DNA of 63,851 bases, filler included, from an uncultured Methanosarcinales archaeon (GCA_964434475.1; 6 parts of 6 records of this genome joined end to end with filler, not necessarily neighbours in it); one strand, 5' to 3'; shown: positions 1 through 35,297, counted from the first letter of the whole stretch. Numbers and translations are program-made. Notes: generated by a model from the sequence alone, not told the origin.

Positions 1-145
1 AAATATCAAGTAGATATATAGAGTTTACGTTTTTGCTAATTTTGCAAAGTTCCCTCTATCAAATGAGCGAATGCGATACATAAAGAACAAGAAAAAAGGG
101 CAGTTTTCCGTAAAGTTTTAAATATTATTAAACTAAATTCTGTGT

Positions 146-1087
146 GTGGCACAAAAAAAGCAAAAACCTTGGAACAAAGGAAAAAAAGGATTGCAAGTTG
201 CTTGGAATAAAGGCAAGAAAGGAACTCATTTTTCTCCTAAAACTGAATTTAAAAAAGGCTCGGTACCTTGGAATAAAGGTAAAGGAAAATATATGTCGGG
301 AAGTAAAAATCCTTTTTATGGTAAGAAGCATTCAGAGGAAACAAGAAGAAAAATGAGTGAAGCTGCCAAAAAAAGAGTTAACGGAGGAATGTTTGGCAAA
401 AAACATTCTAAAGAAACAAAGAAAAAGATAAGCCATTCATCAAAAGGAAGAAAATCTCCGATGAAAGGAAAACATCATTCTAAAAAATCAAGAGTTAAAA
501 TGAGCCAATCTCAGAAAAAGTGGTTTGAAAATAATAATGTTTGGAATAAAGGAAAACCAATGCGTAAAGAATCTAGGCTTAAGCTTAGTGAAGCGCTTAA
601 AGGAAGAATTCCTTTTAATAAAGGAAAAACAAATGTTGGGATGTATGGAGAAGAAAAAGCTAAGGTTTTAGAGCAATTAAATAGAGAGCATATTTTAATC
701 ATGTATGCTTCAGGCACTTTTCCAAAACAAACAAATACAAAAATTGAAATATATATGAAAAAAGAAATGTTAAAGAGAGGATATCGAGAAAATATTGATT
801 TTTTTCATCAATTTAATTTTAATAATAAATTTATGTGTGATTTTGTATTTCTTAAACAAAAGATTGTTATAGAATGTGGTGGTGATTTTTGGCATGCAAA
901 TCCTGAAACATATGCTGGGAAAGAATTAAAGCAAGCACAATTAAATACTCTAAAAAAAGATAAAGCAAAAAATGCGTATATTTCTAAATTTGATAAAGGT
1001 TCTTGGAAACTATTGAGATTTTGGGAATGTGATATTAAAAAAGATGTTTCTAAGTGCGTTGATAAAATTGAAAAATATCTGAAATAG
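146..1087 (+). CDS. NUMOD3-repeat protein with C-terminal Vsr/DUF559-like endonuclease domain (cassette 1 cargo)
   Basis: Repeated PWNKGK and GKKHSxETxxK(M/I)S motifs; C-terminal CDFVF...VIECGGDFWH...LLRFWECDI. Flanked by IR AGGGCAGTTTTCC (97-109) / GGAAAACTGCCCT (1087-1099). Confidence 0.8.
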   Translation: MAQKKQKPWNKGKKGLQVAWNKGKKGTHFSPKTEFKKGSVPWNKGKGKYMSGSKNPFYGKKHSEETRRKMSEAAKKRVNGGMFGKKHSKETKKKISHSSKGRKSPMKGKHHSKKSRVKMSQSQKKWFENNNVWNKGKPMRKESRLKLSEALKGRIPFNKGKTNVGMYGEEKAKVLEQLNREHILIMYASGTFPKQTNTKIEIYMKKEMLKRGYRENIDFFHQFNFNNKFMCDFVFLKQKIVIECGGDFWHANPETYAGKELKQAQLNTLKKDKAKNAYISKFDKGSWKLLRFWECDIKKDVSKCVDKIEKYLK

Positions 1088-1125
1088 GAAAACTGCCCTA
1101 TCTGTTTTTTTAGCCTAAAAAGATT

Positions 1126-1161
1126 ATTTCACTTAAGAACGCGATCGCTCTTATATACCCT
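1126..1161 (+). repeat. Cassette junction S1 (collapsed form)
   Basis: ATTTCACTTAA-GAACGCGA-TCGCTC-TTATATACCCT. Same 8+6 core as S3 but without the inner arms and loop. Confidence 0.75.
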
Positions 1162-1231
1162 GACTTACGAACGAAATGTAGTGAGGAAGGTGCGTAGCGT
1201 TAGCGGAGCAAGTAAATTTAAGCGTGAAAAA

Positions 1232-1522
1232 TTACTCTCTTTCTTGCATATAGTCTACTACTATAGTTATTATTTTTTTTGTAATTTCATTGCAATTCTT
1301 AAATGAAATTTTATCTAAGATTTCGATTCCATATTTTCTAATTAAGTCACTGATTAAAGCGTGAATAAATGATTGAGTTGCTGATTCAATTTTTTCAAAA
1401 TCTAGAGTTATTTCTTCCTTTTTATTTAACATAGGAATTATTTTATTGATTCTAATATCTCTAGCTATATCTTTATTCTCAGCAAAGCTCCCGACTAAGG
1501 GGTGTAGTTTTATTGTAGTCAT
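1232..1522 (-). CDS. STAS-like domain protein (DUF4325 family; cassette 2)
   Basis: ITLDFEKIESATQSFIHALI motif; overlaps the stop of the upstream ATPase gene. Confidence 0.75.
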   Translation of the reverse strand: MTTIKLHPLVGSFAENKDIARDIRINKIIPMLNKKEEITLDFEKIESATQSFIHALISDLIRKYGIEILDKISFKNCNEITKKIITIVVDYMQERE

Positions 1523-2484
1523 ATAAATCTTGGCCTCCTATATTTTGCTTTTTTTCTTTCTCTCACAGTTTTTATATATGTTTCTCTAATTAAATCTAAT
1601 AAAATTGAAAACTTTTTTGTTGCGTCTAGTGATATGTCTATTCCTACAATGGTTCCATTCCAAAAAGGAAGATTTTCATCTTTAGAATGTCTATCTTTAA
1701 ATGGGTCTGAATATAATCTAATGTGTTTTTGTTCAGGTTTACTTTTTAGTAGTTTATACATGGCATTCCCGCTATATATCACAAAAAAGTCACGATTTAC
1801 CTTAGCAATTGACTTAATAAAAAACAATCCTGCTCCAGCATTAAATTCTGAGCCTCCCTCTTTTGTTGTAGTTCCAGTTATTCCTGGCGTCAGTGCTAGT
1901 TGAATTGCTTTTAAGTGAGTTGATGCAGGATAAGAATAACTGATTGCTTTTTTAATTCCAATACCTGTATCCACTATACCAATCCTAATAGTATTGCTTT
2001 TTTTATAGTATTGGGCTGAAAGTATTGCACCAGAGTTAGATTTAGAGTGTTCCAATACATTTCTCACTAACTCACTGACTATATATTTAATAGGTTCTAC
2101 TTGTTTAGGTTCTAGGTGTAATAAGGGAATCATTTCAGTAATAAAATTAGTCAATTCTGTTGAATTTTTTATTTGTGTTAGAGGTATGAATCGTCCAGCA
2201 GGTTCATGTTTTGTAACTTTTATATTTGATTCAATTCCTAAGAACTTAAATAAACCCATTCTCTCAAGATAATGTTTTGATGTTGCTTCAATTTTTTCAC
2301 AATCTATATTTGAAGATTTTACTTTTAGGCCAAGAGAAGCTAACATAGATAAAACTACTGGATGAATCGAAATCCATTTTTTATTTGCTGTAATTTCTAA
2401 TTTATCGGGGCGAGAACTATCAAATTTTCTAATAAATGGATCAATATTTCCTAAAAATGCACTATTTGGAAGGTGTATTTTCAT
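1519..2484 (-). CDS. Histidine-kinase-like (HATPase_c/anti-sigma-type) ATP-binding protein (cassette 2)
   Basis: N-box SELVRNVLEHS, G1 box IVDTGIGI, G2 box GAGL. Start placed at the ATG at 2484 (MKIHLP). Confidence 0.8.
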   Translation of the reverse strand: MKIHLPNSAFLGNIDPFIRKFDSSRPDKLEITANKKWISIHPVVLSMLASLGLKVKSSNIDCEKIEATSKHYLERMGLFKFLGIESNIKVTKHEPAGRFIPLTQIKNSTELTNFITEMIPLLHLEPKQVEPIKYIVSELVRNVLEHSKSNSGAILSAQYYKKSNTIRIGIVDTGIGIKKAISYSYPASTHLKAIQLALTPGITGTTTKEGGSEFNAGAGLFFIKSIAKVNRDFFVIYSGNAMYKLLKSKPEQKHIRLYSDPFKDRHSKDENLPFWNGTIVGIDISLDATKKFSILLDLIRETYIKTVRERKKAKYRRPRFI

Positions 2485-2586
2485 ATTACCGGGAAATATA
2501 ACAGTATTTATAAATGTTTTGTTTTTACCGGGAATCCCGGGCAATATATGTTTATTCTAATTCCCGGTAAATTCGCGCTTAAATTT

Positions 2587-2622
2587 ATTGAACTTAAGAT
2601 CGGCATGCCTCTTAAGTTCTCC
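2587..2622 (+). repeat. Cassette junction S2 (collapsed form)
   Basis: ATTGAACTTAA-GATCGGCA-TGCCTC-TTAAGTTCTCC; hairpin with a 2-nt bulge. Confidence 0.8.
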
Positions 2623-2738
2623 GCCAGTTACAAAGTTCTGGCGGATTGCGATCGCAAAGTAAAATTTAGGTTTCCAGTCAATTTCTACTGAAGGTAGACT
2701 ATATTTTAGGGAATTCTCTATGTTTAAAAATAAATAAT

Positions 2739-2930
2739 CTATTTTCCTTTTATCTCAGGAACAATGTCCAAAACGATTGTTTTTTCAGAATTTGTTAGTT
2801 CTTGATTTAAAACTAGTTTCTTGATAATATCTTTTAAAACTTTGTTTTCATTAGATAAACTACCAACTTGAGATTGAGCTTCATCTCTTTGACGTCTTGC
2901 AGTTATACCTGGCCATGGATTATTATACAT
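2739..2930 (-). CDS. Small hypothetical protein (cassette 3)
   Basis: 63-aa ORF with ATG start and an upstream GTGA motif; no family recognised. Confidence 0.45.
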   Translation of the reverse strand: MYNNPWPGITARRQRDEAQSQVGSLSNENKVLKDIIKKLVLNQELTNSEKTIVLDIVPEIKGK

Positions 2931-3137
2931 AATATCACTACAATGCTATTAGAAATAATACTTTATAAAACTAATCTAATTAATTTTCATTAAGTCGTTT
3001 ATTTATAAATAAAATCAAAAAGTATAAATATGACATAATACAATTTATGTAATAATGGCAAAAAGGGGATTAGCTAGTTTTCTTAGTAATCATACATTAG
3101 ATTTAAATTTATTCCTCATTTATAATGGGGTAGAAAA

Positions 3138-3827
3138 ATGAGTTCATGTATACGTAATAGAGAAATTTGTACCCCTGTCAATGATTTTATGTCGACATTT
3201 AGGACTGTTCTTGATAGCTTTTTTGTTAAGAAAGATCATACAATCAATGCACAATTAGTTATGAATGAATTAAAACAAAAAAAAATCAATATAGAACAGA
3301 TTAAGATTTTTCTAGATACTTTACCCAAAGAAGAATGGAGCATAAAAACTTTCCTTGATAATATTGAAAAACTTAATGATTTTTTCGGAATAAGTGATGA
3401 GGAAATTAATAAGTGGAGTGTGAATCAATTAAACGAAAAAGATGTCTTGGAAATAAGATTTAGAGTTGTTGTTGAATCTATGATAGAATATACTAGATTT
3501 GCATCTGAATTTTATGATGCTTTAAAATATAATACTAATAACCAACTTTCAATGGCAAAAATTAAATTGCTCAATGAATTAATGATGGTCTTTAAATATA
3601 TAAAAGAACAATCAAAAATGATATCGGAGCATTTTAAAAACCGCAAATACAGTATAAAAAATCTAAATGATTTAAATGTGGCCAGACTACCTATTGAATT
3701 TTTAGTTTTAAGAATTCTTTATATAAGTATGAATCTAGCAAAATCTAATGACAAAATGATTGTACATTATGCCGAACTACTCAGCAAAGAAAGAATTTCT
3801 TTAATATATCAGAAAGTAGTTGCATAA
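3138..3827 (+). CDS. Hypothetical helical protein (cassette 3)
   Basis: 229-aa ORF overlapping the start of the next gene. Confidence 0.65.
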   Translation: MSSCIRNREICTPVNDFMSTFRTVLDSFFVKKDHTINAQLVMNELKQKKINIEQIKIFLDTLPKEEWSIKTFLDNIEKLNDFFGISDEEINKWSVNQLNEKDVLEIRFRVVVESMIEYTRFASEFYDALKYNTNNQLSMAKIKLLNELMMVFKYIKEQSKMISEHFKNRKYSIKNLNDLNVARLPIEFLVLRILYISMNLAKSNDKMIVHYAELLSKERISLIYQKVVA

Positions 3828-4587
3828 AATGAAAACGGCATCTGATGTAAATACAATTTTTGCATATAATGATTCATCTCACTTCTTTCATAGACCAGTC
3901 TGCTTACACATGGCAAAAAATATTCGAGGAAAATATGTTCTATTAGATAAAGTAAAAGCAAATTTCATACACACTTATAGAACATACATGACTGATTGTG
4001 AAATTATTATTGAAAAGTCAGTAAGGGAGTACAAACAAAAATTAAGTTCATCACCTTCTAAAACATATACTCCTTCTCTACTAGCCATATCAAAAAATGT
4101 AGATAGCATTATAGCTGGACATTTAAAAAAAATGTCAAATAATATGGACTTTAACATTAAAGCGATAAGAATATTTATCACTTTAATGCTGAGTGATTAC
4201 TCCATTCCAGAACTTGTAAAGAACGATACTGCTTTAGGCGACTTTAAGGAAAAATACCTACTTAAAGCTGAAGAAAGAGCAAAAGATTCACTAAATAAAT
4301 TTGTAAAGTTTTTCAAATCAAATGAATTTGAATTAATGAATATAGGACAATATGAAACTTATGACGAATGGGTAAAAAAAATAAAAAATAGTAAAAATAA
4401 CAGTATTTTTAAAAATAAAAAAGATTATGAGGACATAACTATTGCTGCAGAACTATTTGCATTTAATTCGGAAATAAGTAAATTAGCATTTTTCACAACT
4501 GATTCCGATTTTCAATACTCAACTCCAAAGATAAGTAAAGAATATAAACAAGAAATCGGAAACATAACGTTAATATCAAATAAATAA
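3820..4587 (+). CDS. Putative PIN-like domain protein (cassette 3)
   Basis: N-terminal SDVNTIF and C-terminal EDITIAAE...FFTTDSDF acidic motifs resemble the PIN fold. Confidence 0.55.
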   Translation: MHKMKTASDVNTIFAYNDSSHFFHRPVCLHMAKNIRGKYVLLDKVKANFIHTYRTYMTDCEIIIEKSVREYKQKLSSSPSKTYTPSLLAISKNVDSIIAGHLKKMSNNMDFNIKAIRIFITLMLSDYSIPELVKNDTALGDFKEKYLLKAEERAKDSLNKFVKFFKSNEFELMNIGQYETYDEWVKKIKNSKNNSIFKNKKDYEDITIAAELFAFNSEISKLAFFTTDSDFQYSTPKISKEYKQEIGNITLISNK

Positions 4588-4671
4588 TATTTACTATTAG
4601 TTTAAAAAATATTAATTTATTTTTGTTAAAAAAGAGAATTCCCTATTTATTTTTATAGAAACCTAAATTTT

Positions 4672-4841
4672 ATTGAACTTAAGAACGCGATTAGGCGATA
4701 GTTTTTAGGGTGCAGAGCTGATTGAGGCAGCCCACAATCCTCTGAGGTTAGGGTGGCGTAGCTGGTAGAATTTGGGAGAACGTAGGCGAAGCTACGAAGT
4801 GGCGAGCCGTAGTGAACCGCCTAATCGCTCTTAAGTTCTCC
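4672..4841 (+). repeat. Cassette junction S3 (full form)
   Basis: ATTGAACTTAA-GAACGCGA-TTAGGCG...loop...CGCCTAA-TCGCTC-TTAAGTTCTCC. Two inverted dif-like sites with 8- and 6-nt spacers. Confidence 0.85.
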
Positions 4842-5110
4842 CGACTACGAAGTGGGAGGGATTGCGAAGCAAAGTTGTGTTTAAGTTCCAATCAATTCGA
4901 GCGTGGCGAGTCAATATGTCCGAAGCACGGGGGGAGTTCAGTTCTTTCAAAAGAGCGAAGCGATACTTCAAGAACAAGAATAAAGGGGAGTTCCTATTTT
5001 TTATATTTCAAGGCAGGGCCATCATTTACAACCCTTTAATAGTGACAAAAACAGAAAGAGTTATAACTGGGCGTAGCTTTATACCAATATTAAACTCATA
5101 AGGTGATAAA

Positions 5111-5944
5111 ATGTCAAAATTAGAAACAATTACTGATAATTTACATGATGGATATAATCAATTAAAGAAAGGCACTTTCAGAAGTTCAAAACAGATTCAA
5201 ACCGAAAGGATGAATAATGAAGAACTAAGAAATAAATACTTTTATACTGCTAATGTAGCTACTTATGAACATGCAAAAGATGGTACTGTTAGTTTTTCTC
5301 TTGGCGATGATGTTGCATTTGAATCCGTCATAGGAAGTGAAAATATAGGACAATTCTGTAATGATTTATTAGAAGAAGGAGACCATACGCTTAGTGATTC
5401 TCAAGTAAAAAAACTATCCGAACTTGATAAGAAACATGTTGTAAAGGTTAAGTATAATGATTTAAGATTAAACGAACATCATAGTCAGCTAAGTTATTTA
5501 GAAATCAATACGACTAATTTTGATTCACTAAATGATTCAGAGAAAGCACTTGTTAATATGGTTCATGGAAATGACTATAAGAAGAAAATGGAAATGCTTT
5601 CTGATTCAGGTATAAAAACCACTAAAATTTATATGTTGTCTGAAAATTATGTTAAAAATAATGTTAAGAAAGGTTCATCTATTGCGCGGGCGTGTTGGCT
5701 CGGTAGTTTCTATTACATTTCCTACTTCGGTGCTAATCTCAATAGTGTGGGTAGTCACGAGCGTCTGCGTGGGGTAAATAATTCCGGCGCAGCCGGTGTA
5801 AATGCGAACGATAGTGAGCAAACACAAAAATATACTGATATTGGAATAATTAAACACTTTGATGAAAATCCAATTAGAGACCTAGATTTAGCTAATAAAT
5901 TAATGGGCAAACTTAATGACTTTTATCAAAGTTTAAAACAGTAA
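5111..5944 (+). CDS. Putative diversity-generating retroelement (DGR) target protein (cassette 4)
   Basis: C-terminal ARACWL...FxA...RLRGV variable-region-like segment rich in NNY codons, followed by a CCGGC-GCA-GCCGG hairpin. AGGTGA RBS upstream. Confidence 0.75.
   Translation: MSKLETITDNLHDGYNQLKKGTFRSSKQIQTERMNNEELRNKYFYTANVATYEHAKDGTVSFSLGDDVAFESVIGSENIGQFCNDLLEEGDHTLSDSQVKKLSELDKKHVVKVKYNDLRLNEHHSQLSYLEINTTNFDSLNDSEKALVNMVHGNDYKKKMEMLSDSGIKTTKIYMLSENYVKNNVKKGSSIARACWLGSFYYISYFGANLNSVGSHERLRGVNNSGAAGVNANDSEQTQKYTDIGIIKHFDENPIRDLDLANKLMGKLNDFYQSLKQ
5684..5796 (+). other. Putative DGR variable region (about 5684-5776) plus cis hairpin (5784-5796)
   Basis: GC-rich stretch within an AT-rich gene. 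About 13 codons are of NNT/NNC form, derivable from AAT/AAC by adenine-specific mutagenesis. Confidence 0.7.
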
Positions 5945-6115
5945 ATATTAAATATTCTTTCTTTTTTATTATTCTTGTCTGGCTTAATTGCTGGGCTACA
6001 CGCTTTTTTATTTTTAGGAACTCCCCTTTTAGAATAATTAAATTTCTTTACTAAGTAAAGTGTAACTGTCCGAAGGACTAGAACTCCCCCTATTTTTTAA
6101 AAGAACTTAAACACA

Positions 6116-6253
6116 ATTGAACTTAAGATCGGAATTATCTGAAGTTTTTTGGTGAGGCAGCCCACACCAAAAAATTTGGGAAACATTCGGTAAATCGCTT
6201 GGCGATTTAGCGTAAGCGACCGAATTTTCCTGATAATTCTTCTTATATCCTTT
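6116..6253 (+). repeat. Cassette junction S4 (full form)
   Basis: ATTGAACTTAA-GATCGGAA-TTATC...loop...GATAA-TTCTTC-TTATATCCTTT. Confidence 0.85.
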
Positions 6254-6471
6254 TCCCATACTCAAGTGTGGGAAAACTGCGTCCGCAGAGTGGAATTTGA
6301 GTTGAAAGCGTAGATTTCTTTTAGTTTTTCAGTATTTAGGGGTTCCGAGTTATTAAGGGGTGAGAAAAAAATCATATTTAGTTTACTAAATAGTATACTA
6401 AAAAGAGAAAGTTTAAATAAAAGATATCCCCAACAACTCTTGTGCGATTGCTGGGGATATGTTCGATTCCT

Positions 6472-6774
6472 TCAAATTAAATCAATTTTGTTTCTGTTTT
6501 TGTAAGCTACTTCATCACGGTATGTTATCCTTTCAAAGGATCCGTTTTGTTCGATTTCTCGTAAATCGGCTTCCACGTCTTTTTTTCTGTTGCGGTATCT
6601 TCTGTAGATTTCCTTTAAAAAAACTACACTGTTGTGATGTTTTAACCTCATCTGAAGGAACCGTTCGACATTTGTTTTCATTTCAAACACCTCATGGTCC
6701 TCCAAACCGGCTTTTTTTCCGTGTAAGGAATCTACGTATGCGAAAAAACAGATATATTTATAAATCTTTCGCAA
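6472..6774 (-). CDS. Hypothetical protein (cassette 5)
   Basis: About 100-aa charged ORF divergent from the HTH gene; start uncertain. Confidence 0.5.
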   Translation of the reverse strand: MRKIYKYICFFAYVDSLHGKKAGLEDHEVFEMKTNVERFLQMRLKHHNSVVFLKEIYRRYRNRKKDVEADLREIEQNGSFERITYRDEVAYKNRNKIDLI

Positions 6775-6832
6775 TTACTGGAACTAAATGGTTCTATTTT
6801 GGAACTATTGCTTATGGAAAAGAGGTGATACC

Positions 6833-7156
6833 ATGAGGAGGCTTGACAAAATGGAGGTCAAAACTGTAGACGATTCGGCTTTTTTTGAGATACTAGGAAA
6901 AAGCCAGAACACTAAAATATTGGAATTATTTATTGAACGAGATAGAGATCAATTTAATTTTAGTGAAGTCGCTGAAATGGCTAATGTGCAAAGGCAAAAA
7001 ATAAAAGAAATCCTGGATATTTATTGTAAGATTGGATTACTTTCAATTGCCAAAGAAAGAAAAAATAGAAAATTGTATGTTTTAAACAATTCGAATGCTT
7101 ATGCTAAGCATATTAAAAAAATATATCAGCTAATATTAAAAGAAAAAAACCTATAA
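6833..7156 (+). CDS. Winged helix-turn-helix protein (cassette 5)
   Basis: KILELF...FNFSEVAEMANV...KIGLL...LYVLN wHTH pattern; GAGGTGA RBS before the ATG at 6833. Confidence 0.75.
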   Translation: MRRLDKMEVKTVDDSAFFEILGKSQNTKILELFIERDRDQFNFSEVAEMANVQRQKIKEILDIYCKIGLLSIAKERKNRKLYVLNNSNAYAKHIKKIYQLILKEKNL

Positions 7157-7269
7157 TTTTTTAATTTTTAATTATTTTAAAGAAAGAATTTCATATGTGT
7201 AGTGTTAAATTATTTGAAGTGCTAGATTTATATATAATTATTATTTTTTATTCTAAAAAGGTAAATGAA

Positions 7270-8088
7270 ATGTTAGGAAGACACCATAGTGCATTGACAA
7301 TTGGAACTATTTTACCATTTTTAATTCCTTTAATATTTGTATCAAATGATAATGCCTTAATTTATGGGTTTACTTTCTTGATTGCGGCATTAATTGGATC
7401 ATTGACGCCTGATGCTGATTGTGGAGGTAATGCAACATTATACTATAGATTTGGTCCTATTGATTGGCTGATGAAAAAAGTAGTCATTAAATTGACCATT
7501 AAACTATATGAACAACCTTATTTGAAAAAACAGGTTCAAGAGGGATATAAAGTTCAAGAAGAGCACAGAGGAATTATGCATGCACCTGCGGGGATTATTA
7601 TCAGTTCTTTGATTTTGACTATTATTGGAGCAATTATCGCATATTTTGTTGAATTATTTAATATTACATATTTAATGATAATTTTTAGTGGTTTGTTGGT
7701 CGGACAATTTTTCCATTTGTTAGAAGATAGTTGTACTGTTTCGGGAATCAATTGGAAATTTCCTAAAGGAAAAAAAGAATTAAGTGGGAATATCTACACA
7801 TTTGATAAATTTCAAGATAAAAAAGATTATAGACCAGATCTATTTTTTGAAATTTTATCTGTATTAAACTTGGCGATATTCTTACTATTAGGCTTAGAAA
7901 AAATGACACTTGCATTATGGCAGTATTATCTAATCGTCTGCTTCACTATACTGATCATATGGCTATTTTTTCTTTGGTTATCTGGTATTTGGTCTGAATC
8001 AAAAGAAATTCCAAAAATATTCTTAATTGACAAGGAGAAATATAAAGAAATAAAGAAAGGATTAAGAAAATCAATAAAACAAAGGTGA
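7270..8088 (+). CDS. YdjM-like membrane metal-dependent hydrolase (cassette 5)
   Basis: MxGxxH, GSLTPDAD, HRGIMH and HLLEDxxTxSG motifs; several TM helices. Confidence 0.85.
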   Translation: MLGRHHSALTIGTILPFLIPLIFVSNDNALIYGFTFLIAALIGSLTPDADCGGNATLYYRFGPIDWLMKKVVIKLTIKLYEQPYLKKQVQEGYKVQEEHRGIMHAPAGIIISSLILTIIGAIIAYFVELFNITYLMIIFSGLLVGQFFHLLEDSCTVSGINWKFPKGKKELSGNIYTFDKFQDKKDYRPDLFFEILSVLNLAIFLLLGLEKMTLALWQYYLIVCFTILIIWLFFLWLSGIWSESKEIPKIFLIDKEKYKEIKKGLRKSIKQR

Positions 8089-8126
8089 ATTGATTCGTTA
8101 ATTTTATATTGTTTGTATGCTATTAA

Positions 8127-8912
8127 ATGAAAATGGTTAAGAAAAAAGATTTAGGACATTTGATATCTCCAGTACTCAAAGCAGGATTGAATATACCTAC
8201 ATGCGGTTTTGCAAGTGCCATAGCAGATGTTTTTGATGCACCATATAAAATTCAAAGACAAAAAAATTTAAAGAATTTTGTTGATCAAACAATAAAAAAA
8301 GTCAAAGAGTTAGATATAAAGATTTCAGAATTAGATTTTAAAAAAAGAATTAATGAGCCTGAATTTATACAATTATTTTCAGAGATTCTTAATAAAATTC
8401 AAAACGAAACAAGAGCGAAGATTAGACAAAGTTACTCAAATTTATTGACTAATTTATTAAAAGAAGAAGCAAATATTAATTTTAATAAAAAAATGTTTTT
8501 CGTAAAACTCTTGGAGAGTCTTAATGAAGATCACATCAAATTGTTGCATATATTTTATAAGGATAGAACTGTAAAAAATAGGCTGAAATTAGATACTTTA
8601 CATCAAAAAATGAACTGTTTCATAAAACGTAAAAGAAAAAAAGGAGACCCTGTTAGTTTATTTACTGATGATAAAAGCAAATATATTACTGTTCTTGATG
8701 AATTAAAAAGCTCATATATAGAATCATTAATAAGTGATTTAGACAGTAAGAAACTAATCAATATTGAAATGGATATTTCTTCGGAAGCTAATGTTGATGA
8801 AAACGAAGGTAATGTTACGGCAGTTGATTCCATTGACAATGATATATCTTATGAATATATGGGAACTCAATTAGGATTTGATTTCTATAAGTCAATAAAA
8901 GAATATAAGTAG
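8127..8912 (+). CDS. Hypothetical protein, possibly Abi-alpha/DUF4393-like (cassette 5)
   Basis: Helical core with YSNLL...FVKLLESLNEDHIKLL and a C-terminal wHTH-like TQLGFDF; resemblance only. Confidence 0.5.
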   Translation: MKMVKKKDLGHLISPVLKAGLNIPTCGFASAIADVFDAPYKIQRQKNLKNFVDQTIKKVKELDIKISELDFKKRINEPEFIQLFSEILNKIQNETRAKIRQSYSNLLTNLLKEEANINFNKKMFFVKLLESLNEDHIKLLHIFYKDRTVKNRLKLDTLHQKMNCFIKRKRKKGDPVSLFTDDKSKYITVLDELKSSYIESLISDLDSKKLINIEMDISSEANVDENEGNVTAVDSIDNDISYEYMGTQLGFDFYKSIKEYK

Positions 8913-9050
8913 TTTCTTATTTTAAAAATTGATAGACCTATTTTTTTACGTATTGTTTTTTTTCTCGCCCCTTACATTATTTTCTTTTGCTTTGCAAAAG
9001 GCTAGATTTACTCGGAACCCCTCATCTTTATTGTTAAGAACTCAAATTCC

Positions 9051-9139
9051 ATTGGATATAAGACCTATTATGCGCATTTCTTTTTCGCATAATGTGCGTA
9101 TAAAGTGGTTATTGCGCATAATTAGGTCTTAAGTGCTTG
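9051..9139 (+). other. Terminal dif-like recombination site S5 (candidate chromosomal attachment site)
   Basis: ATTGGATATAA-GACCTA-TTATGCGCATT (11-6-11, 9051-9078), an extra half-site TTTTCGCATAA (9082-9092) and an inverted copy ATTGCGCATAA-TTAGGTC-TTAAGTGCTTG (9111-9139). Confidence 0.75.
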
Positions 9140-9211
9140 ATTTTGGACGTATGTGTTATAGAATATGTGTGTCCTTTTAGCTCAGTTTAACATTGTTAAA
9201 TTCAGAACTGT

Positions 9212-9616
9212 TTAGTTTAGAAGATTGCTTAGCTCTTGTTTTATGTCAGGTATTCTTGTGCTTTGTATTGTCTTTGTCTGCTGGCGGATGCCATTTTCAT
9301 CTTTGCCGTACTGCGTATATTCTTTATTTATGTGTGTCTTGCATTTTGCTATAAATTTAGTATATCCTATATCTTTGTTAATCTTTATCTCTATTAGCCT
9401 TTCTATGCCATTATTATATTTTATCTTGTATTCTTCTGTGCAAGCTATTGATTTTCTTTTGGATATCTTAACTGCTTCGCAATACTCAGGATTATGTATC
9501 CTTTCGGAATAAAGTCTTTTGATATCCTTTAATGTTTTTACTTTATTGTTTTCAAGATAATTTAATATGCATTTTGCGGCATATTTCATATCTTTCTTTG
9601 TAATCTTTGAATTCAT
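9212..9616 (-). CDS. Hypothetical protein
   Basis: 134-aa ORF; no family recognised. Confidence 0.55.
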   Translation of the reverse strand: MNSKITKKDMKYAAKCILNYLENNKVKTLKDIKRLYSERIHNPEYCEAVKISKRKSIACTEEYKIKYNNGIERLIEIKINKDIGYTKFIAKCKTHINKEYTQYGKDENGIRQQTKTIQSTRIPDIKQELSNLLN

Positions 9617-9714
9617 GTTTTTGATATGGATAGTTTATTTAAAAATGTAGTGTGTTTTTTATTGTATAATCTATCATACAAAACATTATAAATACTCCCT
9701 TAATCAACATACTT

Positions 9715-10959: not shown

Positions 10960-10965
10960 ATGATT

Positions 10966-11424
10966 TTATTTGACTATAACCTTTCCCTGTATTGCTTGGA
11001 AAGCTGCACTATATATCATAAATTCTCCTGTTTCTTCAAAGGTATAACTGACATTTTCACCAGGCGCTACTCTTTCAAGTTTGAAATTTTTTGAGCTATC
11101 ATAAGGTATGGGTTTGCCTAACAATCTATGCACTGCATGTCCGTTATTCTTCCACATAACTGTAGTTCCTTTGGTAATCTCTATCTCTATAGGGTCAAAT
11201 TGTTTGTTTAAATTTATTTCCCTATATTCTATTTCTTTTGGCTCCTCTATTTTAGGTTCTTGTTTATCTGGCTCAGAAACAGGTTCTTCAGATTCGGTTT
11301 CAGGAATAATCTCTGTTGGTACAGTCTCTTGTTCAGGTTCAACTATCGGCTCTTCAACAATCTCTTGTGGAGTACAGCCTACAATAAACATCATTAAAAT
11401 TAATCCTGTAAATATTCTTTTCAT
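10966..11424 (-). CDS. Lipoprotein with cupredoxin-like domain
   Basis: Lipobox IVGC, acidic Pro-rich linker, FDPxxIEIxKGTTVxWxN...H. Confidence 0.75.
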   Translation of the reverse strand: MKRIFTGLILMMFIVGCTPQEIVEEPIVEPEQETVPTEIIPETESEEPVSEPDKQEPKIEEPKEIEYREINLNKQFDPIEIEITKGTTVMWKNNGHAVHRLLGKPIPYDSSKNFKLERVAPGENVSYTFEETGEFMIYSAAFQAIQGKVIVK

Positions 11425-11460
11425 ATTATTATCACCTAAAAAAATAAAAGAAAAAAAGAT

Positions 11461-11931: not shown

Positions 11932-12050
11932 CTCTGCGTTTTTTGTGATTTTATATATAATTATCTATCCTCTTTTATAAACTTTGTGTTTTTTAGGGTT
12001 CATCCGGAATAAGGTTCAAATAATATTTTAAATATGAGATTAATCATTCT

Positions 12051-29859: not shown

Positions 29860-29932
29860 GCCTCTGTAGCATAGTAGCTATTGCGTCGGTCTCGTAAACC
29901 GAAGGTCGGGAGTGCAACTCTCCCCAGAGGCT
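29860..29932 (+). tRNA. tRNA-Thr(CGT)
   Basis: Acceptor stem GCCTCTG/CAGAGGC, anticodon arm TCGGT-CTCGTAA-ACCGA, T arm GGGAG-TGCAACT-CTCCC; no encoded CCA. Confidence 0.92.
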
Positions 29933-30264: not shown

Positions 30265-30292
30265 ATTTCGCATAATAGGTGTTATATTCAAT
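30265..30292 (-). other. Second dif-like recombination site
   Basis: Minus strand ATTGAATATAA-CACCTA-TTATGCGAAAT; 24/28 identical to S5. Confidence 0.78.
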
Positions 30293-30428
30293 TTTTGGAT
30301 TACTTATTTTTAGAAAGAGAGAGGGGCTTAGTCCTTCGGACATTTTGCCTTTTACTTCGTAAAAGAATTTATAGGAAGGGGCGTCAAGATAGTCTTTTTC
30401 TGCGAAAAAGAAATTTATTAGGGGCGTT

Positions 30429-30920
30429 TTAAACATAAAAATAGATTATTAAACTCCATAAAATCAAAATCAAATTTGTTATTGATGTGTAAAACCAAGG
30501 AAATTTATATTTTCTTATTCTACAAAACCAAATATAAACTAGCAAAATCCACTCTACAAATATCAATATTAAATATTCTTTTACAATAGGAAAAACCCAA
30601 TTCAAAAATAAACCAAAAAGCAAAACTAAGAAAAAACCTACTACTAACTCTAACAGAAAAAACACAAAACCTTTCTCTTTCGTAGAAAATAGATGATTTC
30701 CAAATATTTTACTATAACCTTTACCACCCTCATACACAATTCCCGGAATCATCGCTCCAATTGTTAATGTAAAAAACCATACTAAAAATGTCAATAAAAC
30801 ATTTATATGAGAAATAATTGTATCTTTCATTAACCATAAAAGTAAAACATAAACTCCAGTAATGAGAAAAATAACAAGTTCAGTCCACCATTTAATTTTT
30901 TCTTTATTATTTTTTCCCAT
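30429..30920 (-). CDS. Hypothetical membrane protein (about 5 TM helices)
   Basis: Hydrophobic 163-aa ORF, last gene of the RM operon. Confidence 0.7.
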   Translation of the reverse strand: MGKNNKEKIKWWTELVIFLITGVYVLLLWLMKDTIISHINVLLTFLVWFFTLTIGAMIPGIVYEGGKGYSKIFGNHLFSTKEKGFVFFLLELVVGFFLVLLFGLFLNWVFPIVKEYLILIFVEWILLVYIWFCRIRKYKFPWFYTSITNLILILWSLIIYFYV

Positions 30921-30927
30921 AGTGATC

Positions 30928-31410
30928 TTATAATTTCGGCGTCAAACTGGAATAATCAATACAATCTCTCGCTTTATCCCACTTCGCTATTTGCATAAAT
31001 TTATTTGTTTTTGTTCCAAACTTCAATAAATCTTCTCTTTTCAAGACATTAATAATATGTGATAATCTGCCTAATCCTTTAGAAGAAACTAAAAAAGATT
31101 CTATTGGATCTATTAATTGAGTGTATCCCCAAAGCTGTCCTAAATCTTTGAGAGTTAAATCTGTGTCTTTCACTTCAACAAAAACAAGTTTAAACTCATC
31201 GCCTCTTTTCAAAATTCCTACAATATCTACTTTTATTTGTAAGCCTATTGCTTCTTTACATTGGATGCCTTTACTTTTCAAAACAACATCTAAGTTTCTT
31301 CTTGAAGTTTCATAAGTAGTCTGAACTGTATAACCTTTGTATTTATCAGTTAAGTAATTCTGCAACCATTCTTTTATTTCAGGATAAAGTTTTTCTTCTT
31401 CTTTACTCAT
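30928..31410 (-). CDS. Small PD-(D/E)XK nuclease-fold protein
   Basis: EEKLY...VDIVG...FVEVK...GQLxGY motif. Confidence 0.7.
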   Translation of the reverse strand: MSKEEEKLYPEIKEWLQNYLTDKYKGYTVQTTYETSRRNLDVVLKSKGIQCKEAIGLQIKVDIVGILKRGDEFKLVFVEVKDTDLTLKDLGQLWGYTQLIDPIESFLVSSKGLGRLSHIINVLKREDLLKFGTKTNKFMQIAKWDKARDCIDYSSLTPKL

Positions 31411-32314
31411 CGTAACCTAACTCCTTTGACATATCTTTCCAACTATCAAAATGTTTTCTAACTTTTGTGGGTAATTTCGTACTTTTTTCTTCTGGATGTT
31501 TTGGTTTTTTCCTGTTTATTTCCTTAGTCTCCCAATAAAATTTATGATGTGCTTCTGAAATTGGTTTATCCTTATATTTTTTAGAATCTTTTGATGCTTC
31601 TTTCCAATTTTTTCTGTTTAAGTCAGCAAATCTCTTTAGAAGCTTATTTTTATGGTCAATATTAAAACCTACTTTTTCAAATTCTTCTGCCCATACTTTT
31701 ATTTGATGTTCTTTATTCCAAAATTCTTTTGAACCTTCATTATATTTTTTCAAATTTGGATCAACTATGTTTGGATGAGCAAACCTAATTGTTTGAACTG
31801 GAACATCTAATTCTTTTAGCAAATTCGCAATATCTATGCACAAATCCCAATTAACCATTATTTCAACATAAACTCTATTTTCATAATCTTTCCATGCAAC
31901 ATTACTTTTTCTTATATGAGCTGTTACGTCGGCAATTCCTCTTAAAAATTCTAATTTTATGTCTTTTGTTGCAGAAAATATTTCTGTTGGTATTCTTACA
32001 TCTCTCCAGCTTACATGGTTTTTCAAATATGTGTTAATAGTTCTTATCAAATAATCTCCATTTGGTTTTGAAAAAGAAATATGGGCGATGTTTGGTCTTG
32101 AGGTGTCCCATTCCATATCTGCTCCAACAAGAATTTTTAATCTTCCAACAATATCTAATAAACTTGACTTTACTGATTGTTGGGTATTCTCTCCTTCAAT
32201 CACTAAATTTTTATGTGGAATATCTATGATAATCTCCGTATCTCTATTTCCTCTAATTATTTGTCCTTTCCCGACAATCATTCCCAATAAATAAGCTATA
32301 TCTGCATTTAACAT
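31403..32314 (-). CDS. LAGLIDADG-like two-motif protein with degenerate catalytic residues
   Basis: IAYLLGMIVGKG and IPxxIF...EFLRGIADVTA. Confidence 0.6.
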   Translation of the reverse strand: MLNADIAYLLGMIVGKGQIIRGNRDTEIIIDIPHKNLVIEGENTQQSVKSSLLDIVGRLKILVGADMEWDTSRPNIAHISFSKPNGDYLIRTINTYLKNHVSWRDVRIPTEIFSATKDIKLEFLRGIADVTAHIRKSNVAWKDYENRVYVEIMVNWDLCIDIANLLKELDVPVQTIRFAHPNIVDPNLKKYNEGSKEFWNKEHQIKVWAEEFEKVGFNIDHKNKLLKRFADLNRKNWKEASKDSKKYKDKPISEAHHKFYWETKEINRKKPKHPEEKSTKLPTKVRKHFDSWKDMSKELGYDE

Positions 32315-32318
32315 TTTT

Positions 32319-33119
32319 TCACTTCCTAAATATGAGTATGAACTCATGAACTTTATTTACTCTAAATACAAATGGATAACCAAGAGGACGCATATTATTA
32401 TACTCTTTTTGTCTATCCCAAATAATCATATCATCTAATTCAAAACCAATTTCTTGCATTTTGTTTATCATATCCATATGAAATGGATAAAACTTTGCTT
32501 TTTTTCTAATGTCCATTACCACAACGATACAATATTTTCCTTTCTTTAAAACTTTATAGACGCCTTCAAATCCTGTTTTGAGTTTATTTAAGAATTCTTG
32601 ATAATCTGCGATATTTCCCAAGTCATCTTTTGAATTACTATAATTTCTTATTTCTTTTCTATCGGCTGACCTTTTGGCGTTTAGAATATCCCAATATGGC
32701 GGAGATGTAATAACTAAATCAACAGAATCTTCTTTTAATGTTTTAGGAATATCAAAAATAGTTTTATTATAAATTTCTGGCTTAATTAAATCCTCTGGCT
32801 TTTGTTCTAAATTTAACTGAGTTTCTTTTATTCTATTTTCAGATAATTTAATGTATTCTTTAGAAAGTTCAAATCCTATTCCTTTTCGACCTAATTTATA
32901 GGCAGATACGACCGTACTTCCACTTCCTAAAAACGGATCTAAAACAACTTCCCCTTTATTTTTAGTGTGAATTTGAATTAATCTTGATGTTAATTGAGTT
33001 GGAAACATAGCAGGATGTTTTAATTTCCTTTCTCCGTTGGTTTTTTCAATATCTTTCCAAATACTAAAAGAGTATTGTAACCATTCTTTCCCTGTTAAAT
33101 TATTCATTCGTTCTCCCAT
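32319..33119 (-). CDS. Amino-DNA methyltransferase (probably N4-cytosine)
   Basis: HPAMFP, DPFLGSGST, TSPPY. Confidence 0.9.
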   Translation of the reverse strand: MGERMNNLTGKEWLQYSFSIWKDIEKTNGERKLKHPAMFPTQLTSRLIQIHTKNKGEVVLDPFLGSGSTVVSAYKLGRKGIGFELSKEYIKLSENRIKETQLNLEQKPEDLIKPEIYNKTIFDIPKTLKEDSVDLVITSPPYWDILNAKRSADRKEIRNYSNSKDDLGNIADYQEFLNKLKTGFEGVYKVLKKGKYCIVVVMDIRKKAKFYPFHMDMINKMQEIGFELDDMIIWDRQKEYNNMRPLGYPFVFRVNKVHEFILIFRK

Positions 33120-33120
33120 T

Positions 33121-34788
33121 TTACCACAAACTTTTTTCAGACATTATTTGCTTTAATGCCATGTTTATTTTATCTTGTTCAGTTTTAGTTAATCCATATA
33201 GCTTATAGACCTTTTTATCCAATTCAGGCAATAATTTTTTTATATTACCTTGATTAATTTCTCTAACAAGACTAATAATCTCTTTTTGTTTTTCTTTAGT
33301 AACTTTTTTAATTGGAATTTTGCCTAAATAAACTTTATCTGTGTGCATGGTTAATTTTGATTTATTGAAAACTGCATACATCAAATAGAAATTTATCAAT
33401 TTAGAATTTAACAAGCCATAGATATAATCTAATTCGTAAGATTTGTCTTTAAGAATAATGTTACTTACAGTATCAAAATTCAAATTTCCTTTTTCGTCTA
33501 TTGCGGAAATAATCCCTGCTTCTCTTGAAAAGATATTCTGAAGAATTATTTTTCTCTTTTGAAGTTCTCCTAATTTCGAAGAATCATTCATTAAACATTT
33601 AGCATCAATAAAAAAACCATTTGTAAAAAAAGACTTTGAAATATCATTACCCTTAATAATTGAAACATTTTCCTTGCCCTTTGATTTAGATATAATCTTA
33701 GAATTTGGACTTATAGAAATTCCTCTAAAAATGTCTGCAATATTTTCTAAATTGTTTCCTTTAATTTTATCTATCAACTCATAATAAGACTTATCTTCAA
33801 ACATCAAAAAAGTATTATATTTTTGAAAAGTTTTTTGAGGAACAAAAAATTCTTTATCCTTATCAAATAACTTGATTAAAACCTTATTATTTTGTATTTG
33901 TTCTTTTTTAGTTGTTTTTTGTATGAATAAAACAACCTGTTCTCCTCGAACATCTTTAAAACAAGTACTTAAATCAAGTATATGTAATATTTTGGAATTA
34001 TTTAATAAAAATTCCCTTAATCTTGAATATGAGTTTACTCTAATTAATGTTTTAGGCAAAACAAAAGCCATCACTCCACCCTCTTTGAGAAGCTCATAAG
34101 ATTTAGCAATAACTAAAGAAGCAGCATTTGTGCTACCATTAGCAATATGAGAGAAGAAAGATTCAGAAACATCATAATCTCTTTTATTCTTTAAAGTTAC
34201 ATAAGGGGGATTTCCGATTATAAAATCAAAGCCGCCCTCATCAAGAATTTCCGAAAATTGTTTTTTCCAATCAAAAGCTTTTTTATCCATAAGTTTATTC
34301 TCAACAATAGAATTCCCTATTTTAATATTTTTTTCAAGAATGTTTAGTGAGTTTGAATCTTGACCATTTCTTAACCATAAATTTATTCTTGCTATCTTTG
34401 TTGCAGAATTATTTAAATCAACACCAAAGATGTTATTTATTGCATTAGGATTCTTTTGTTTTAAATGATTATATGCAGTTACTAAAAAAACACCACATCC
34501 ACAAGTTGGATCTAAGATTTTAGAATCTGCTTTAATATCAAGAAAATTGACCATATAATTAACGATTTCTTGCGGAGTGTAAAACTGCCCTAAATCCTTT
34601 TTTTCTTGTTCTCTTATTAATTTTTCAAATAAAACTCCAAGGGTATCTTCTTTAATCTTTGCTATTTGTTCTTGTTCAATTTTTTTAACTACTTTTTTAA
34701 TGATTTTATCTTGATATGGTAAGGACTCCAAAGTATCTCTACTTAAATGAAAATTCTCTTGCGTTGGATGAACTAAAATAGTGTCCAT
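33121..34788 (-). CDS. N6-adenine DNA methyltransferase (gamma class) with TaqI-like TRD
   Basis: GQFYTP, LDPTCGCGVFL, GNPPY, GLLNSKL. Confidence 0.92.
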   Translation of the reverse strand: MDTILVHPTQENFHLSRDTLESLPYQDKIIKKVVKKIEQEQIAKIKEDTLGVLFEKLIREQEKKDLGQFYTPQEIVNYMVNFLDIKADSKILDPTCGCGVFLVTAYNHLKQKNPNAINNIFGVDLNNSATKIARINLWLRNGQDSNSLNILEKNIKIGNSIVENKLMDKKAFDWKKQFSEILDEGGFDFIIGNPPYVTLKNKRDYDVSESFFSHIANGSTNAASLVIAKSYELLKEGGVMAFVLPKTLIRVNSYSRLREFLLNNSKILHILDLSTCFKDVRGEQVVLFIQKTTKKEQIQNNKVLIKLFDKDKEFFVPQKTFQKYNTFLMFEDKSYYELIDKIKGNNLENIADIFRGISISPNSKIISKSKGKENVSIIKGNDISKSFFTNGFFIDAKCLMNDSSKLGELQKRKIILQNIFSREAGIISAIDEKGNLNFDTVSNIILKDKSYELDYIYGLLNSKLINFYLMYAVFNKSKLTMHTDKVYLGKIPIKKVTKEKQKEIISLVREINQGNIKKLLPELDKKVYKLYGLTKTEQDKINMALKQIMSEKSLW

Positions 34789-34928
34789 TATTTAACCTCT
34801 TTTTTTACTTCTTTTTCCATATAATTTTGAAATTGTTTGGAAACAATCCATCCTTTTTTATCGCACTGCTCTTTAAATTTATCATAAATTTCAGAATCCA
34901 CAAATAAAGTTACTCTTTTTTTAGCCAT
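34788..34928 (-). CDS. Ribbon-helix-helix regulator (46 aa; not in the ORF track)
   Basis: MAKKRVTLFVDSEIYDKFKEQCDKKGWIVSKQFQNYM; TAATG overlap with the MTase start. Confidence 0.75.
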   Translation of the reverse strand: MAKKRVTLFVDSEIYDKFKEQCDKKGWIVSKQFQNYMEKEVKKEVK

Positions 34929-34939
34929 CATCATCCCCT

Positions 34940-34957
34940 TTATGTAAGCTTACATAA
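34940..34957. promoter_or_regulatory. Perfect 18-bp palindrome, candidate operator of the RM operon
   Basis: TTATGTAAGCTTACATAA between a TATA-like tract and the RHH start. Confidence 0.55.
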
Positions 34958-35197
34958 GATTATTAACAAACATCTATATAAATCTATCGCACACTTGTCT
35001 AGTGGTAAGTGTAAAAGACGCCCCTAAATGTTCTTTTCAGAAAAGAACCAAAACAAGACGCCCCTTCTATCTTCTTTTTTTAGAAAAAAGAAGCAAAAAA
35101 TCTGACGCCCCTCTCTCGTCCTTCGGACATATACACTCCCTGCGGTCGAATTTATCAGTAATCCAAAAACTCTAAAATTTTCCTACGGAACGTTGCA

Positions 35198-35297
35198 NNN
35201 NNNNNNNNNNNNNNNNNNNNNNNNNNNNNNNNNNNNNNNNNTTAATTAATTAANNNNNNNNNNNNNNNNNNNNNNNNNNNNNNNNNNNNNNNNNNNN
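35198..35297. other. Artificial contig linker
   Basis: N-run with TTAATTAATTAA. Confidence 0.97.

Follow-up and report, generated by a model that had tools for sequence, protein, structure and literature searches.

Integrons hold accessory genes in rows of promoter-poor cassettes, the ends of each cassette pair together, and the platform site lies beside the gene of an Xer-related 'simple' tyrosine recombinase; arrays without an integrase also occur. Their attC sites, which fold as one strand, have R''/R' cores of the form RYYYAAC / GTTRRRY, with the crossover in R'. In the available part of the report on archaeal integrons, these have canonical IntI, attC and attI (Ghaly 2022). Here we describe a row of five gene cassettes in a 63,851-nt stretch of DNA (the window: six records of assembly GCA_964434475.1, filed under an uncultured Methanosarcinales archaeon, joined end to end with filler). 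Based on its anatomy and on a comparison with 400 sampled genomes of the same DPANN phylum (the relatives), we consider it probable that this row belongs to an integron-like gene-cassette platform built on Xer/dif-type sites.

The likeness to integrons lies in the row of promoter-poor accessory-gene cassettes, in the pairing of the two ends of each cassette, in a platform site beside an Xer-related integrase gene (here in the relatives G174, G221, G176 and G398), in the occurrence of arrays lacking an integrase and in the spread of the family over a phylum. On the other hand, the array integrase is devoid of the extra domain of IntI, and the core is TAA-6-TTA and not AAC/GTT. Each cassette end carries half a site, with the predicted crossover at the tip, whereas an integron cassette has a whole attC at one end. 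The end modules of 110-170 nt are conserved, unlike in integrons, and the integrase gene stands at the array's far end in the same orientation. Two of the three features by which integrons are recognised, the integrase domain and the attC core, are therefore lacking.

Integrative mobile elements exploiting Xer (IMEX), such as the CTX phage of Vibrio, which uses host XerCD at dif, share with our locus the 11-6-11 cores, the hybrid sites and the tandem arrays at one site. The CTX phage site folds as one strand, with two inverted dif-like sites making one, and the terminal site of the window likewise consists of two inverted dif-like sites that could fold into one hairpin. Unlike IMEX, the cassettes described here most likely depend on a dedicated paralogue, their sites appear to lie off the chromosomal dif, they are of the scale of single genes and not of phages, and they are archaeal. 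The words IMEX and DPANN are absent from the accessible part of a review of archaeal tyrosine recombinases.

In the pdif modules of Acinetobacter plasmids, as far as the accessible text describes them, accessory genes are bracketed by 28-bp Xer-type sites and several modules follow each other, as is the case here. Those modules, in contrast, are bacterial and plasmid-borne, rely on host XerC/XerD with alternating site orientation, and appear in that text without conserved structured end modules or own-module complementarity beyond the site. A single recombinase with a site beside its own gene is known from XerS/difSL. The dif of XerA in our relatives lies 50-300 nt upstream of its gene, and the hybrid site of the array-adjacent integrases (class B, see below) is placed likewise; XerS/difSL, however, serves chromosome-dimer resolution and has no cassettes. 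A survey of tyrosine recombinases contains a 'Cand' group of Xer-related candidate-phyla proteins, and its accessible part mentions no cassette system in that group. Our literature search, with most subscription journals outside its coverage, turned up no account of a DPANN system that combines dif-core cassette arrays with Xer-like integrases. The original prediction (a reading of this DNA from the sequence alone) likewise knew of none, and the platform is apparently undescribed.

Junctions and end modules of the array

The original prediction had proposed unrelated gene blocks in mixed orientation, each followed by a junction of one layout, and a direct reading bears this out at all five positions (1126, 2587, 4672, 6116 and 9051; Table 1). 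Each junction runs from an 11-nt arm ending in TAA through a stretch beginning with GA, an inner palindrome or stem-loop and a stretch ending with TC to an arm beginning with TTA (at 1151, 2612, 4831, 6243 and 9129). The closing arm is ATTTCACTTAA at the first junction, ATTGAACTTAA at the next three and ATTGGATATAA at the last. Cargo families differ between the blocks, with genes on both strands. For the core octamer ACTTAAGA, 4.5 copies are expected in the window and ten are present, seven of them within 1-9139. Folded as single strands, junctions 2 to 5 gave z-scores of -4.2, -2.7, -7.5 and -5.3 against shuffles. Since bases 51-100 of the window match the inner part of a left-end module, the window starts within the array. 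The region is probably the distal part of a cassette platform.

Across the family we read 21 left-end junctions, a list outside which junction 1 of the window stands. Five are plain 11-6-11 sites (arm ATTGnnnTTAA, 6 nt, arm TTAAGTTCnTT) with the cores TCGCTG, TTCCTG, TTCTTG, TTCATG and GCCCTG, and 11-6-11 is the layout of Xer sites in the accessible part of the literature (Cortez 2010). Ten junctions, including junctions 3 and 4 of the window, have an 8-nt stretch, an inner module and a 6-nt stretch; three, including junction 2, have 14 nt made up of the 8-nt and 6-nt stretches with nothing between them; and three have a spacer of 10-12 nt. Junction 1 has the same 14-nt form as junction 2, and the letters of its spacer are identical to those flanking the inner module of junction 3. 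The arms, 11 nt ending in TAA and an arm starting with TTA, are of the Xer/dif type, as the original prediction had it. The GA...TC spacer is present as originally described, but it is not the basic form, being derived from the plain 11-6-11 core.

Cassettes begin with a conserved left-end module of about 170 nt, in which two hairpins (hp2 and hp3) precede three boxes, and end with a right-end module of about 110 nt that holds the complements of the arm and of the left-end boxes. The two hairpins covary: in 21 copies, 95.8% of the cells are paired compared with 85.5% in shuffles, 9 of the 15 pairs show compensatory changes (in 30 cells, where shuffles give 7.6), and slid controls are at most 60% paired. 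One T.G pair, corresponding to a G.U wobble, is retained in 18 of the 21 copies and on one strand only, which hints that one particular strand folds. Many of the small hairpin loops are of the C-GNA-G kind, a very stable DNA mini-hairpin motif.

The covariation, the wobble on a single strand, the long-range 5'/3' boxes that recall processing stems and the high identity across the phylum would also suit a different view, in which the modules are structured RNAs (leader or trailer elements, or 5'/3' pairing for processing or stability) and the array is merely a gene cluster. We regard this as quite unlikely, because the cargo genes lie on either strand relative to the modules, the modules end in recombinase-type arms and adjoin an integrase gene, and the same cassette recurs in other surroundings. 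Moreover, no Rfam family matches them: with Rfam 15, only tRNA-Thr reaches the gathering threshold in the window, and the E-value mode over 1-9400 returned a single chance match (E 0.86). An RNA role for part of a module could nevertheless exist alongside recombination.

What the original prediction called an optional inner stem-loop is present, and is better described as a conserved non-coding module of about 100-135 nt with its own arms (TTAnnnn...nnnnTAA). Within it, a hairpin of variable stem but kept position is followed by AATTTGGGA and by a second hairpin. This inner module is the most conserved part of the system (both window copies and L189, L191, L192, L195, L196, L199 and L200) and the deepest covered in mat samples, at a depth of 15-31 compared with about 9 for the genome. 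The copy in junction 4 has counterparts 90-99% alike on short contigs and at up to 88% identity in other genomes. The inner module looks like a gene-less, mobile-looking mini-cassette, and it may be a small RNA gene, a recombination accessory or an empty cassette.

Pairing between the two ends of a cassette

The claim that the opening arm of a cassette is the complement of its own closing arm holds exactly, over 8 nt, in cassettes 3, 4 and 5 (in cassette 5, TTATATCC at 6243 and GGATATAA at 9054). Cassette 2 fits in part, as predicted: its arms TTATATAC and GAACTTAA are only partially complementary, and a perfect 12-nt inner box, TAAATTTAAGCG at 1213, has its complement at 2577. The two arms inside junction 4 do not pair, and neither do those inside junction 5. 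Because the arms of cassette 5 pair with each other and the arms within a junction do not, the exchange point would lie between the two junction arms, and each cassette therefore has half a site at either end.

The complementarity reaches beyond the arms into three to four further boxes of 9-16 nt. Blocks of the left end have exact complements, in reverse order, on the right end of the same cassette: GGGCAGTTTTCC in cassette 1; AAAATTTAGGTTTC / GAAACCTAAATTTT and TAGGGAATTCTCT in cassette 3; GTGTTTAAGTTC, GGGGGAGTTC and AAAGGGGAGTTCCTA in cassette 4; GGAATTTGAGTT and AGGGGTTCCGAGT in cassette 5. We compared cognate and non-cognate ends in the 13 cassettes with both ends placeable (four from the window, nine from relatives) by summing colinear exact complementary blocks of at least 8 nt, since plain local alignment catches the best box only. 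The cognate mean was 42.5 nt, compared with 18.1 nt (sd 10.3) for non-cognate ends; the cognate partner was the best of its row in 10 of the 13, and the observed sum was reached by none of 20,000 permutations. An exact 8-nt arm complement occurs in eight of the 13, with four arm sequences (TTAAGTTC, TTATATCC, TTAGTTTC and TTAAATAC). In the flanks outside the blocks, 225 of 792 positions are Watson-Crick paired, which is the random level; the blocks are therefore discrete helices and not one long stem. G.T and A.C mismatches beside the boxes (104 and 68) are too weak and composition-dependent a signal to tell the folding strand.

The proposal that a circularised unit would rebuild a stem thus extends from the arms to further boxes, while no circular form appeared among the contigs of the probable source sample. 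Two candidate back-joints, 4875 to 75 and 6303 to 6059, were rejected: the intervening letters differ, and they most likely represent other family junctions in other genomes.

Inverted ends on each unit, the frequent TTAA at the tips and the multi-copy state could alternatively point to tandem non-autonomous inverted-repeat transposons, similar to miniature inverted-repeat transposable elements with cargo, moved by a DDE transposase encoded elsewhere. This seems very improbable to us. The units show no target-site duplication pattern that holds for all of them (the tips of cassette 5 are TTAT/ATAA), and they adjoin tip to tip with a fixed 6-nt core. No transposase was found in the window or beside those arrays of relatives that were read, the recurrent neighbour being an integrase. 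Furthermore, transposase binding does not explain why boxes differ between units and yet match within each unit.

The boxes beside the arms have the form RYYYAAA/TTTRRRY and differ by one letter from the R boxes of attC. Arrays without an integrase are, moreover, common among archaeal metagenome-assembled genomes (MAGs) in the available part of the published survey (Ghaly 2022), and both observations might suggest a canonical integron remnant (a cluster of attC sites lacking an integrase, CALIN) as reported in Archaea. We consider this the least probable of the alternatives. The AAC/GTT triplet is lacking in all five window cassettes, and the crossover would lie between the arms and not in an R-type box, own-complementary arms being found in cassette 5, L189, L192 and L200. 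The associated integrase lacks the extra domain of IntI and does not reach the cut-offs of the IntI model, whereas the published archaeal IntIs, in that same part of the survey, have this domain together with canonical attC and attI (Ghaly 2022). Judged by their letters rather than by an attC model, the sites are not canonical attC, in line with the original prediction.

The integrase beside the arrays of relatives

As initially reported, the window has no integrase or Rep gene: neither a tyrosine-recombinase nor a Rep domain was found in the window open reading frames (ORFs) of at least 100 aa or in the scanned ORFs of at least 50 aa from 1-12000. The attI-like hybrid site that ends the array (9051-9139) is not followed by an integrase gene, and movement in the window array would therefore need an integrase from elsewhere. 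The architecture of this site is that found upstream of the class-B integrase genes of relatives. There, the last right-end module leads into the cassette arm, which 6 nt separate from a second type of arm (such as TTACATGAAGT or TTAAACGAAGT). A co-oriented integrase gene follows, and an inverted copy of the second arm often stands before the integrase start. The 11-6-11 layout is found at both terminal sites of the window, 9051-9078 and 30292-30265 (minus strand). We read the adjacency of array and integrase base by base in G174, G221, G176 and G398; the protein is a tyrosine recombinase of about 270-285 aa.

We then surveyed 40 further loci from 25 genomes, and the ORF was recovered in 40 of 42 loci including those of G174 and G221. 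Class labels were given by eye. In class B (21 of 40) a cassette-type arm, 6 nt and a second, dif-type arm lie at most 330 nt upstream, and in class A (7 of 40) the upstream site is a near-palindromic 11-6-11 sequence, such as ACTTCGCATAA TATATC TTATACGAAGG. Two further ORFs resemble class A in their upstream small ORF, eight are without a label, and two integrases, shorter and of a different type, were excluded, which left 38 proteins for the tree. The class-A protein scores 264.3 bits on the XerA equivalog NF040815 and passes its cut-off of 220, whereas two class-B proteins, at 198.8 and 192.1 bits, stay below it. The same two reach 169 and 184 bits on the IntI model TIGR02249 (cut-off 265), in two stretches that skip model positions 184-240, the IntI-specific domain. 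The nearest solved structure is that of P. abyssi XerA. In the tree, class A falls into two tight groups, and class B into two deep clades and two single rows. Two changes account for the labels, compared with 7.9 in shuffles, and none of 500 shuffles was as low.

These findings bear on the enzyme. The original prediction had the cassettes inserted at a dif-like site by a recombinase acting in trans, probably host XerA; such cassettes would be IMEX-like, with no dedicated enzyme. The match of the arms to the 11-6-11 Xer layout, the resemblance of the terminal site's outer arm to the arms of the phylum's own dif, the lack of an integrase in the window, and G221, where the array-adjacent integrase is the sole Xer-like gene above 100 bits, all agree with that proposal. 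However, dif-adjacent XerA and array-adjacent integrases are different paralogues that often share a genome (G174, G072, G314, G238 and G043), cassettes lie at several genome positions and not at one terminus site, and cassette arms are unlike dif arms. The class-A genes have their own dif-like near-palindrome 50-300 nt upstream (L206, L205, L202, L203, L210, L211 and L239), and no cassette was found at the xerA-adjacent dif of the phylum in seven loci. A tyrosine recombinase thus stays the likely enzyme, but since the array-adjacent integrase is separate from the XerA with its own dif, host XerA is not the best guess and we hold it to be unlikely. Most likely, the enzyme is a dedicated Xer-like paralogue and not the dimer-resolution enzyme.

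Fourteen plus-strand integrase matches begin less than 2.2 kb from the contig start, and for eight on the minus strand the contig ends less than 2 kb upstream, as repeats upstream would cause. Some genomes have a small membrane-protein ORF between the dif-like site and the XerA gene. In one class-B clade (L208, L209, L213, L214, L217 and L230) a motif of about 35 nt, CCACTCCC.CACTGGACAA.T.CGGATAG..TAT.TAAAT, stands directly before the start codon; it is likely to be an integrase promoter or operator. Repeats of ACTGGACA are found upstream of other class-B integrases (L226, L233, L234 and L236).

Spread, mobility and proposed mechanism

A BLAST search with the 9.2-kb array matched parts of it in 200 of the 400 genomes, cargo genes as well as junction modules; the matches listed are mostly junction modules (75-96% identity), of which one genome often has several copies. 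With profiles of the cassette-4 ends and of the inner part of junction 4, the same three modules were recovered in 15 loci, their order and orientation unchanged. The covariance-model scan suggested in the original prediction was run with a model (R1) of the left-end core, comprising the arm, two hairpins and the first box (90 positions, 21 sequences); junction 1 stayed outside this model and its alignment (A5), its right half being unalignable by MAFFT. R1 finds 2606-2697 (76.8 bits), 4825-4910 (60.9 bits) and 6237-6328 (71.8 bits) in the window. Within the phylum it matches 50 of 151 genomes, a single genome having up to ten copies, compared with none of 151 in the phylum of a Thalassarchaeaceae MAG. 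The cassette system is thus widespread in the phylum and not peculiar to the window locus.

Short contigs that are 90-99% alike, from the probable source sample and from two sister samples, cover junction modules only. Bases 1-55 of the window lie on a 1105-nt contig of the probable source sample with a depth of 292, whereas the genome has a depth of about 9. Such a pattern agrees with a repeat family that interrupts assemblies, and the left end of the window is thus an assembly break at a very abundant repeat. Coming from the probable source study, these contigs are not independent support. An exact-arm scan of a broad set of genome contigs gave 120 single matches, consistent with chance, the lone archaeal one inside an Sm-like gene; the same arm had two matches, both intragenic, in 201 genomes of the order of G239, compared with four for a control. 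The cassette-1 protein found only distant NUMOD3 matches among metagenome contigs.

The gene pair of cassette 2 occurs in 12 other genomes (one of them, L178, unpublished) at 64-76% nucleotide identity. In 11 of these its surroundings are unrelated and cassette ends are lacking. In G134, cassette 2 has its ends at 76% identity and different neighbours; the match starts 4 nt ahead of the left arm, reaches into the right end and is preceded by a cassette-type arm, a spacer and TTATATTTCCC. Just upstream of the longer gene of this DUF4325 and HATPase_c pair, a palindrome, ACCGGGAATCCCGGT, is present in all 12 other genomes (window 2525-2570; L174-L185), followed in most of them by a second CCCGG repeat; it is probably the gene pair's own operator. 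The cargo in relatives consists of accessory genes in both orientations: peptidases, CAP, LemA, NUDIX, a 2'-5' RNA ligase-like protein, an MFS transporter, a HAD hydrolase, TrmB regulators, a HEPN and nucleotidyltransferase pair and a PPDK-like protein.

Cassettes stand at several places per genome, two in the window and two in G176. The second place in the window is a sixth, solitary cassette, whose flank resembles the terminal hybrid site. The profiles of the cassette-4 ends place its right-end module at 30371-30287 and its left-end module at about 35173-35106. Its cargo (30429-34788) is a restriction-modification set, made up of two methylase genes and of three ORFs that match no family. 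The left tip is masked by N (35197-35296), a mask interrupted midway by the letters ttaattaattaa, and a tRNA-Thr gene (29860-29932) lies 350 nt beyond the right end. Among the other genes of the window, that at 9715-10959 scores 204.7 bits on TIGR00375, below the cut-off of 326.6, with no Pfam match at E 0.01; the earlier label EndoQ is plausible but not confirmed. Three paralogous AAA_14 and DUF4143 ATPase genes lie within 18 kb (39853-41115, 41637-42893 and 55958-57241).

Table 1. Positions of the cassettes, junctions and associated features in the window
Feature	Position	Strand	Details
Cassette 1 (left tip cut off by window start)	1..1136	+	inner left-end module 1-109; arm ATTTCACTTAA 1126-1136
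Cassette 1 gene, NUMOD3 + DUF559/Vsr-like endonuclease	146-1087		
Cassette 1 inverted boxes	98; 1087	+	GGGCAGTTTTCC (98) / GGAAAACTGCCC (1087)
Junction 1 spacer, 14 nt	1137..1150	+	8+6 composite palindrome, GAACGCGA then TCGCTC
Cassette 2	1151..2597	+	left arm TTATATAC, atypical left end; arm ATTGAACTTAA 2587-2597
Cassette 2 genes	1232-1522; 1519-2544	minus	DUF4325; HATPase_c
Junction 2 spacer, 14 nt	2598..2611	+	GATCGGCA then TGCCTC
Cassette 3	2612..4682	+	left-end module: arm TTAAGTTC, hairpins hp2/hp3, box AAAATTTAGGTTTC
Cassette 3 right end	4672-4682 (arm)	+	box GAAACCTAAATTTT, arm
Cassette 3 ORFs, no family (three)	2739-2930 (minus); 3138-3827; 3820-4587		
Junction 3	4683..4830	+	8-nt spacer 4683-4690; inner module 4691-4824; 6-nt spacer TCGCTC 4825-4830
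Junction 3 inner module, non-coding	4691-4824		own arms TTAGGCG...CGCCTAA
Cassette 4	4831..6126	+	full left-end module 4831-4997; right-end module 6015-6126
Cassette 4 ORF, no family	5111-5944		
Junction 4	6127..6242	+	8-nt spacer GATCGGAA; inner module 6135-6236; 6-nt spacer TTCTTC
Junction 4 inner module	6135-6236		arms TTATCTG...CCTGATAA; hairpin loop GAGGCAGCCCAC
Cassette 5	6243..9061	+	left arm TTATATCC, hp2/hp3, boxes; right arm ATTGGATATAA 9051-9061
Cassette 5 genes	6472-6774 (minus); 6788-7156; 7195-8088; 8127-8912		third YdjM-like; fourth Abi_alpha-like
Terminal hybrid site (attI-like)	9051..9139	+	cassette arm ATTGGATATAA + GACCTA + dif-type arm TTATGCGCATT (9068-9078)
Terminal site, second half	9111-9139		after 32 nt: inverted copy ATTGCGCATAA (9111-9121) + TTAGGTC + TTAAGTGCTTG (9129-9139)
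Sixth, solitary cassette	30282..35200	minus	left-end module about 35200-35000; right-end module 30371-30287
Sixth cassette flank	30282 (arm end)	minus	arm ATTGAATATAA, then CACCTA TTATGCGAAAT

Several observations weigh against a cassette platform with its own integrase. None of the internal junctions of the window is a plain 6-nt core, tyrosine recombination does not normally yield a 14-nt spacer, and junction 1 folds no better than shuffles (z +0.5). Own-complementary arms are absent in five of the 13 cassettes, window cassette 2 included. In the probable source sample no contig joins the two ends of a cassette or skips one, contigs being uninformative on circles as they drop rare variants. 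No empty site was found at the L10e / tRNA-Thr locus, which is not syntenic in five relatives, and the ArgRS of the window, our measure of closest relationship, is at most 58% identical to that of any of the 400 genomes. The window, the part of this genome covered by the comparison, has no integrase, and activity of its array would be a prediction from the sequence. Adjacency of array and integrase is direct in four genomes and deduced from upstream sequence elsewhere, the classes depend on labels assigned by eye, and the array-adjacent integrases L236 and L238 fall outside the two main class-B clades.

Considering all the above results, we propose the following mechanism, in which we infer that the integrase acts on the cassette sites, that a circle is the intermediate and that the paired boxes have a role. 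A cassette is the unit between a left arm TTAnnnnn and its complementary right arm nnnnnTAA, and neighbours meet arm to arm over a short central region, in its plainest form a dif-like 11-6-11 site. The class-B integrase may bind the two arms of this core and exchange strands at the borders between arm and spacer. The cassette would then be excised as a circle, in which its own arms and boxes face each other and one palindromic site is rebuilt, and the circle would be inserted at the hybrid site adjoining the integrase gene.

Since the boxes differ between cassettes and match within each, they need an explanation beyond protein binding. They may fold as one strand, which we prefer, or they may hold the two ends of a cassette together. 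The junctions with an inner module and the terminal site of the window have the form of two inverted sites. On the other hand, the plain double-stranded 11-6-11 cores argue for ordinary Xer chemistry on double strands, as does the absence of the IntI domain, and single- and double-strand substrates may both be used. A further possibility, which we put forward tentatively and would not yet call probable, is that the integron principle was invented a second time, independently, in these DPANN archaea: with a dedicated XerA paralogue, a platform that is half cassette and half dif, four-helix pairing of the ends, and cassettes recognised as a folded single strand or by self-synapsing ends.

Little is known about how DPANN archaea, host-dependent organisms with tiny genomes, acquire and rearrange their accessory and defence genes. 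If our proposal is true, a platform that a third to half of the phylum's sampled genomes possess would be a major route for such genes, and gene-capture arrays could rest directly on Xer/dif parts without the special domain of IntI. Such arrays bear on the origin of integrons from Xer-like ancestors, and the 90-position covariance model of the end modules offers a handle for mining cassettes from metagenomes. If the second invention were also true, these archaea could hold a living intermediate between dimer resolution and integron-type capture, and the platform could be a main route by which their reduced genomes exchange accessory genes.

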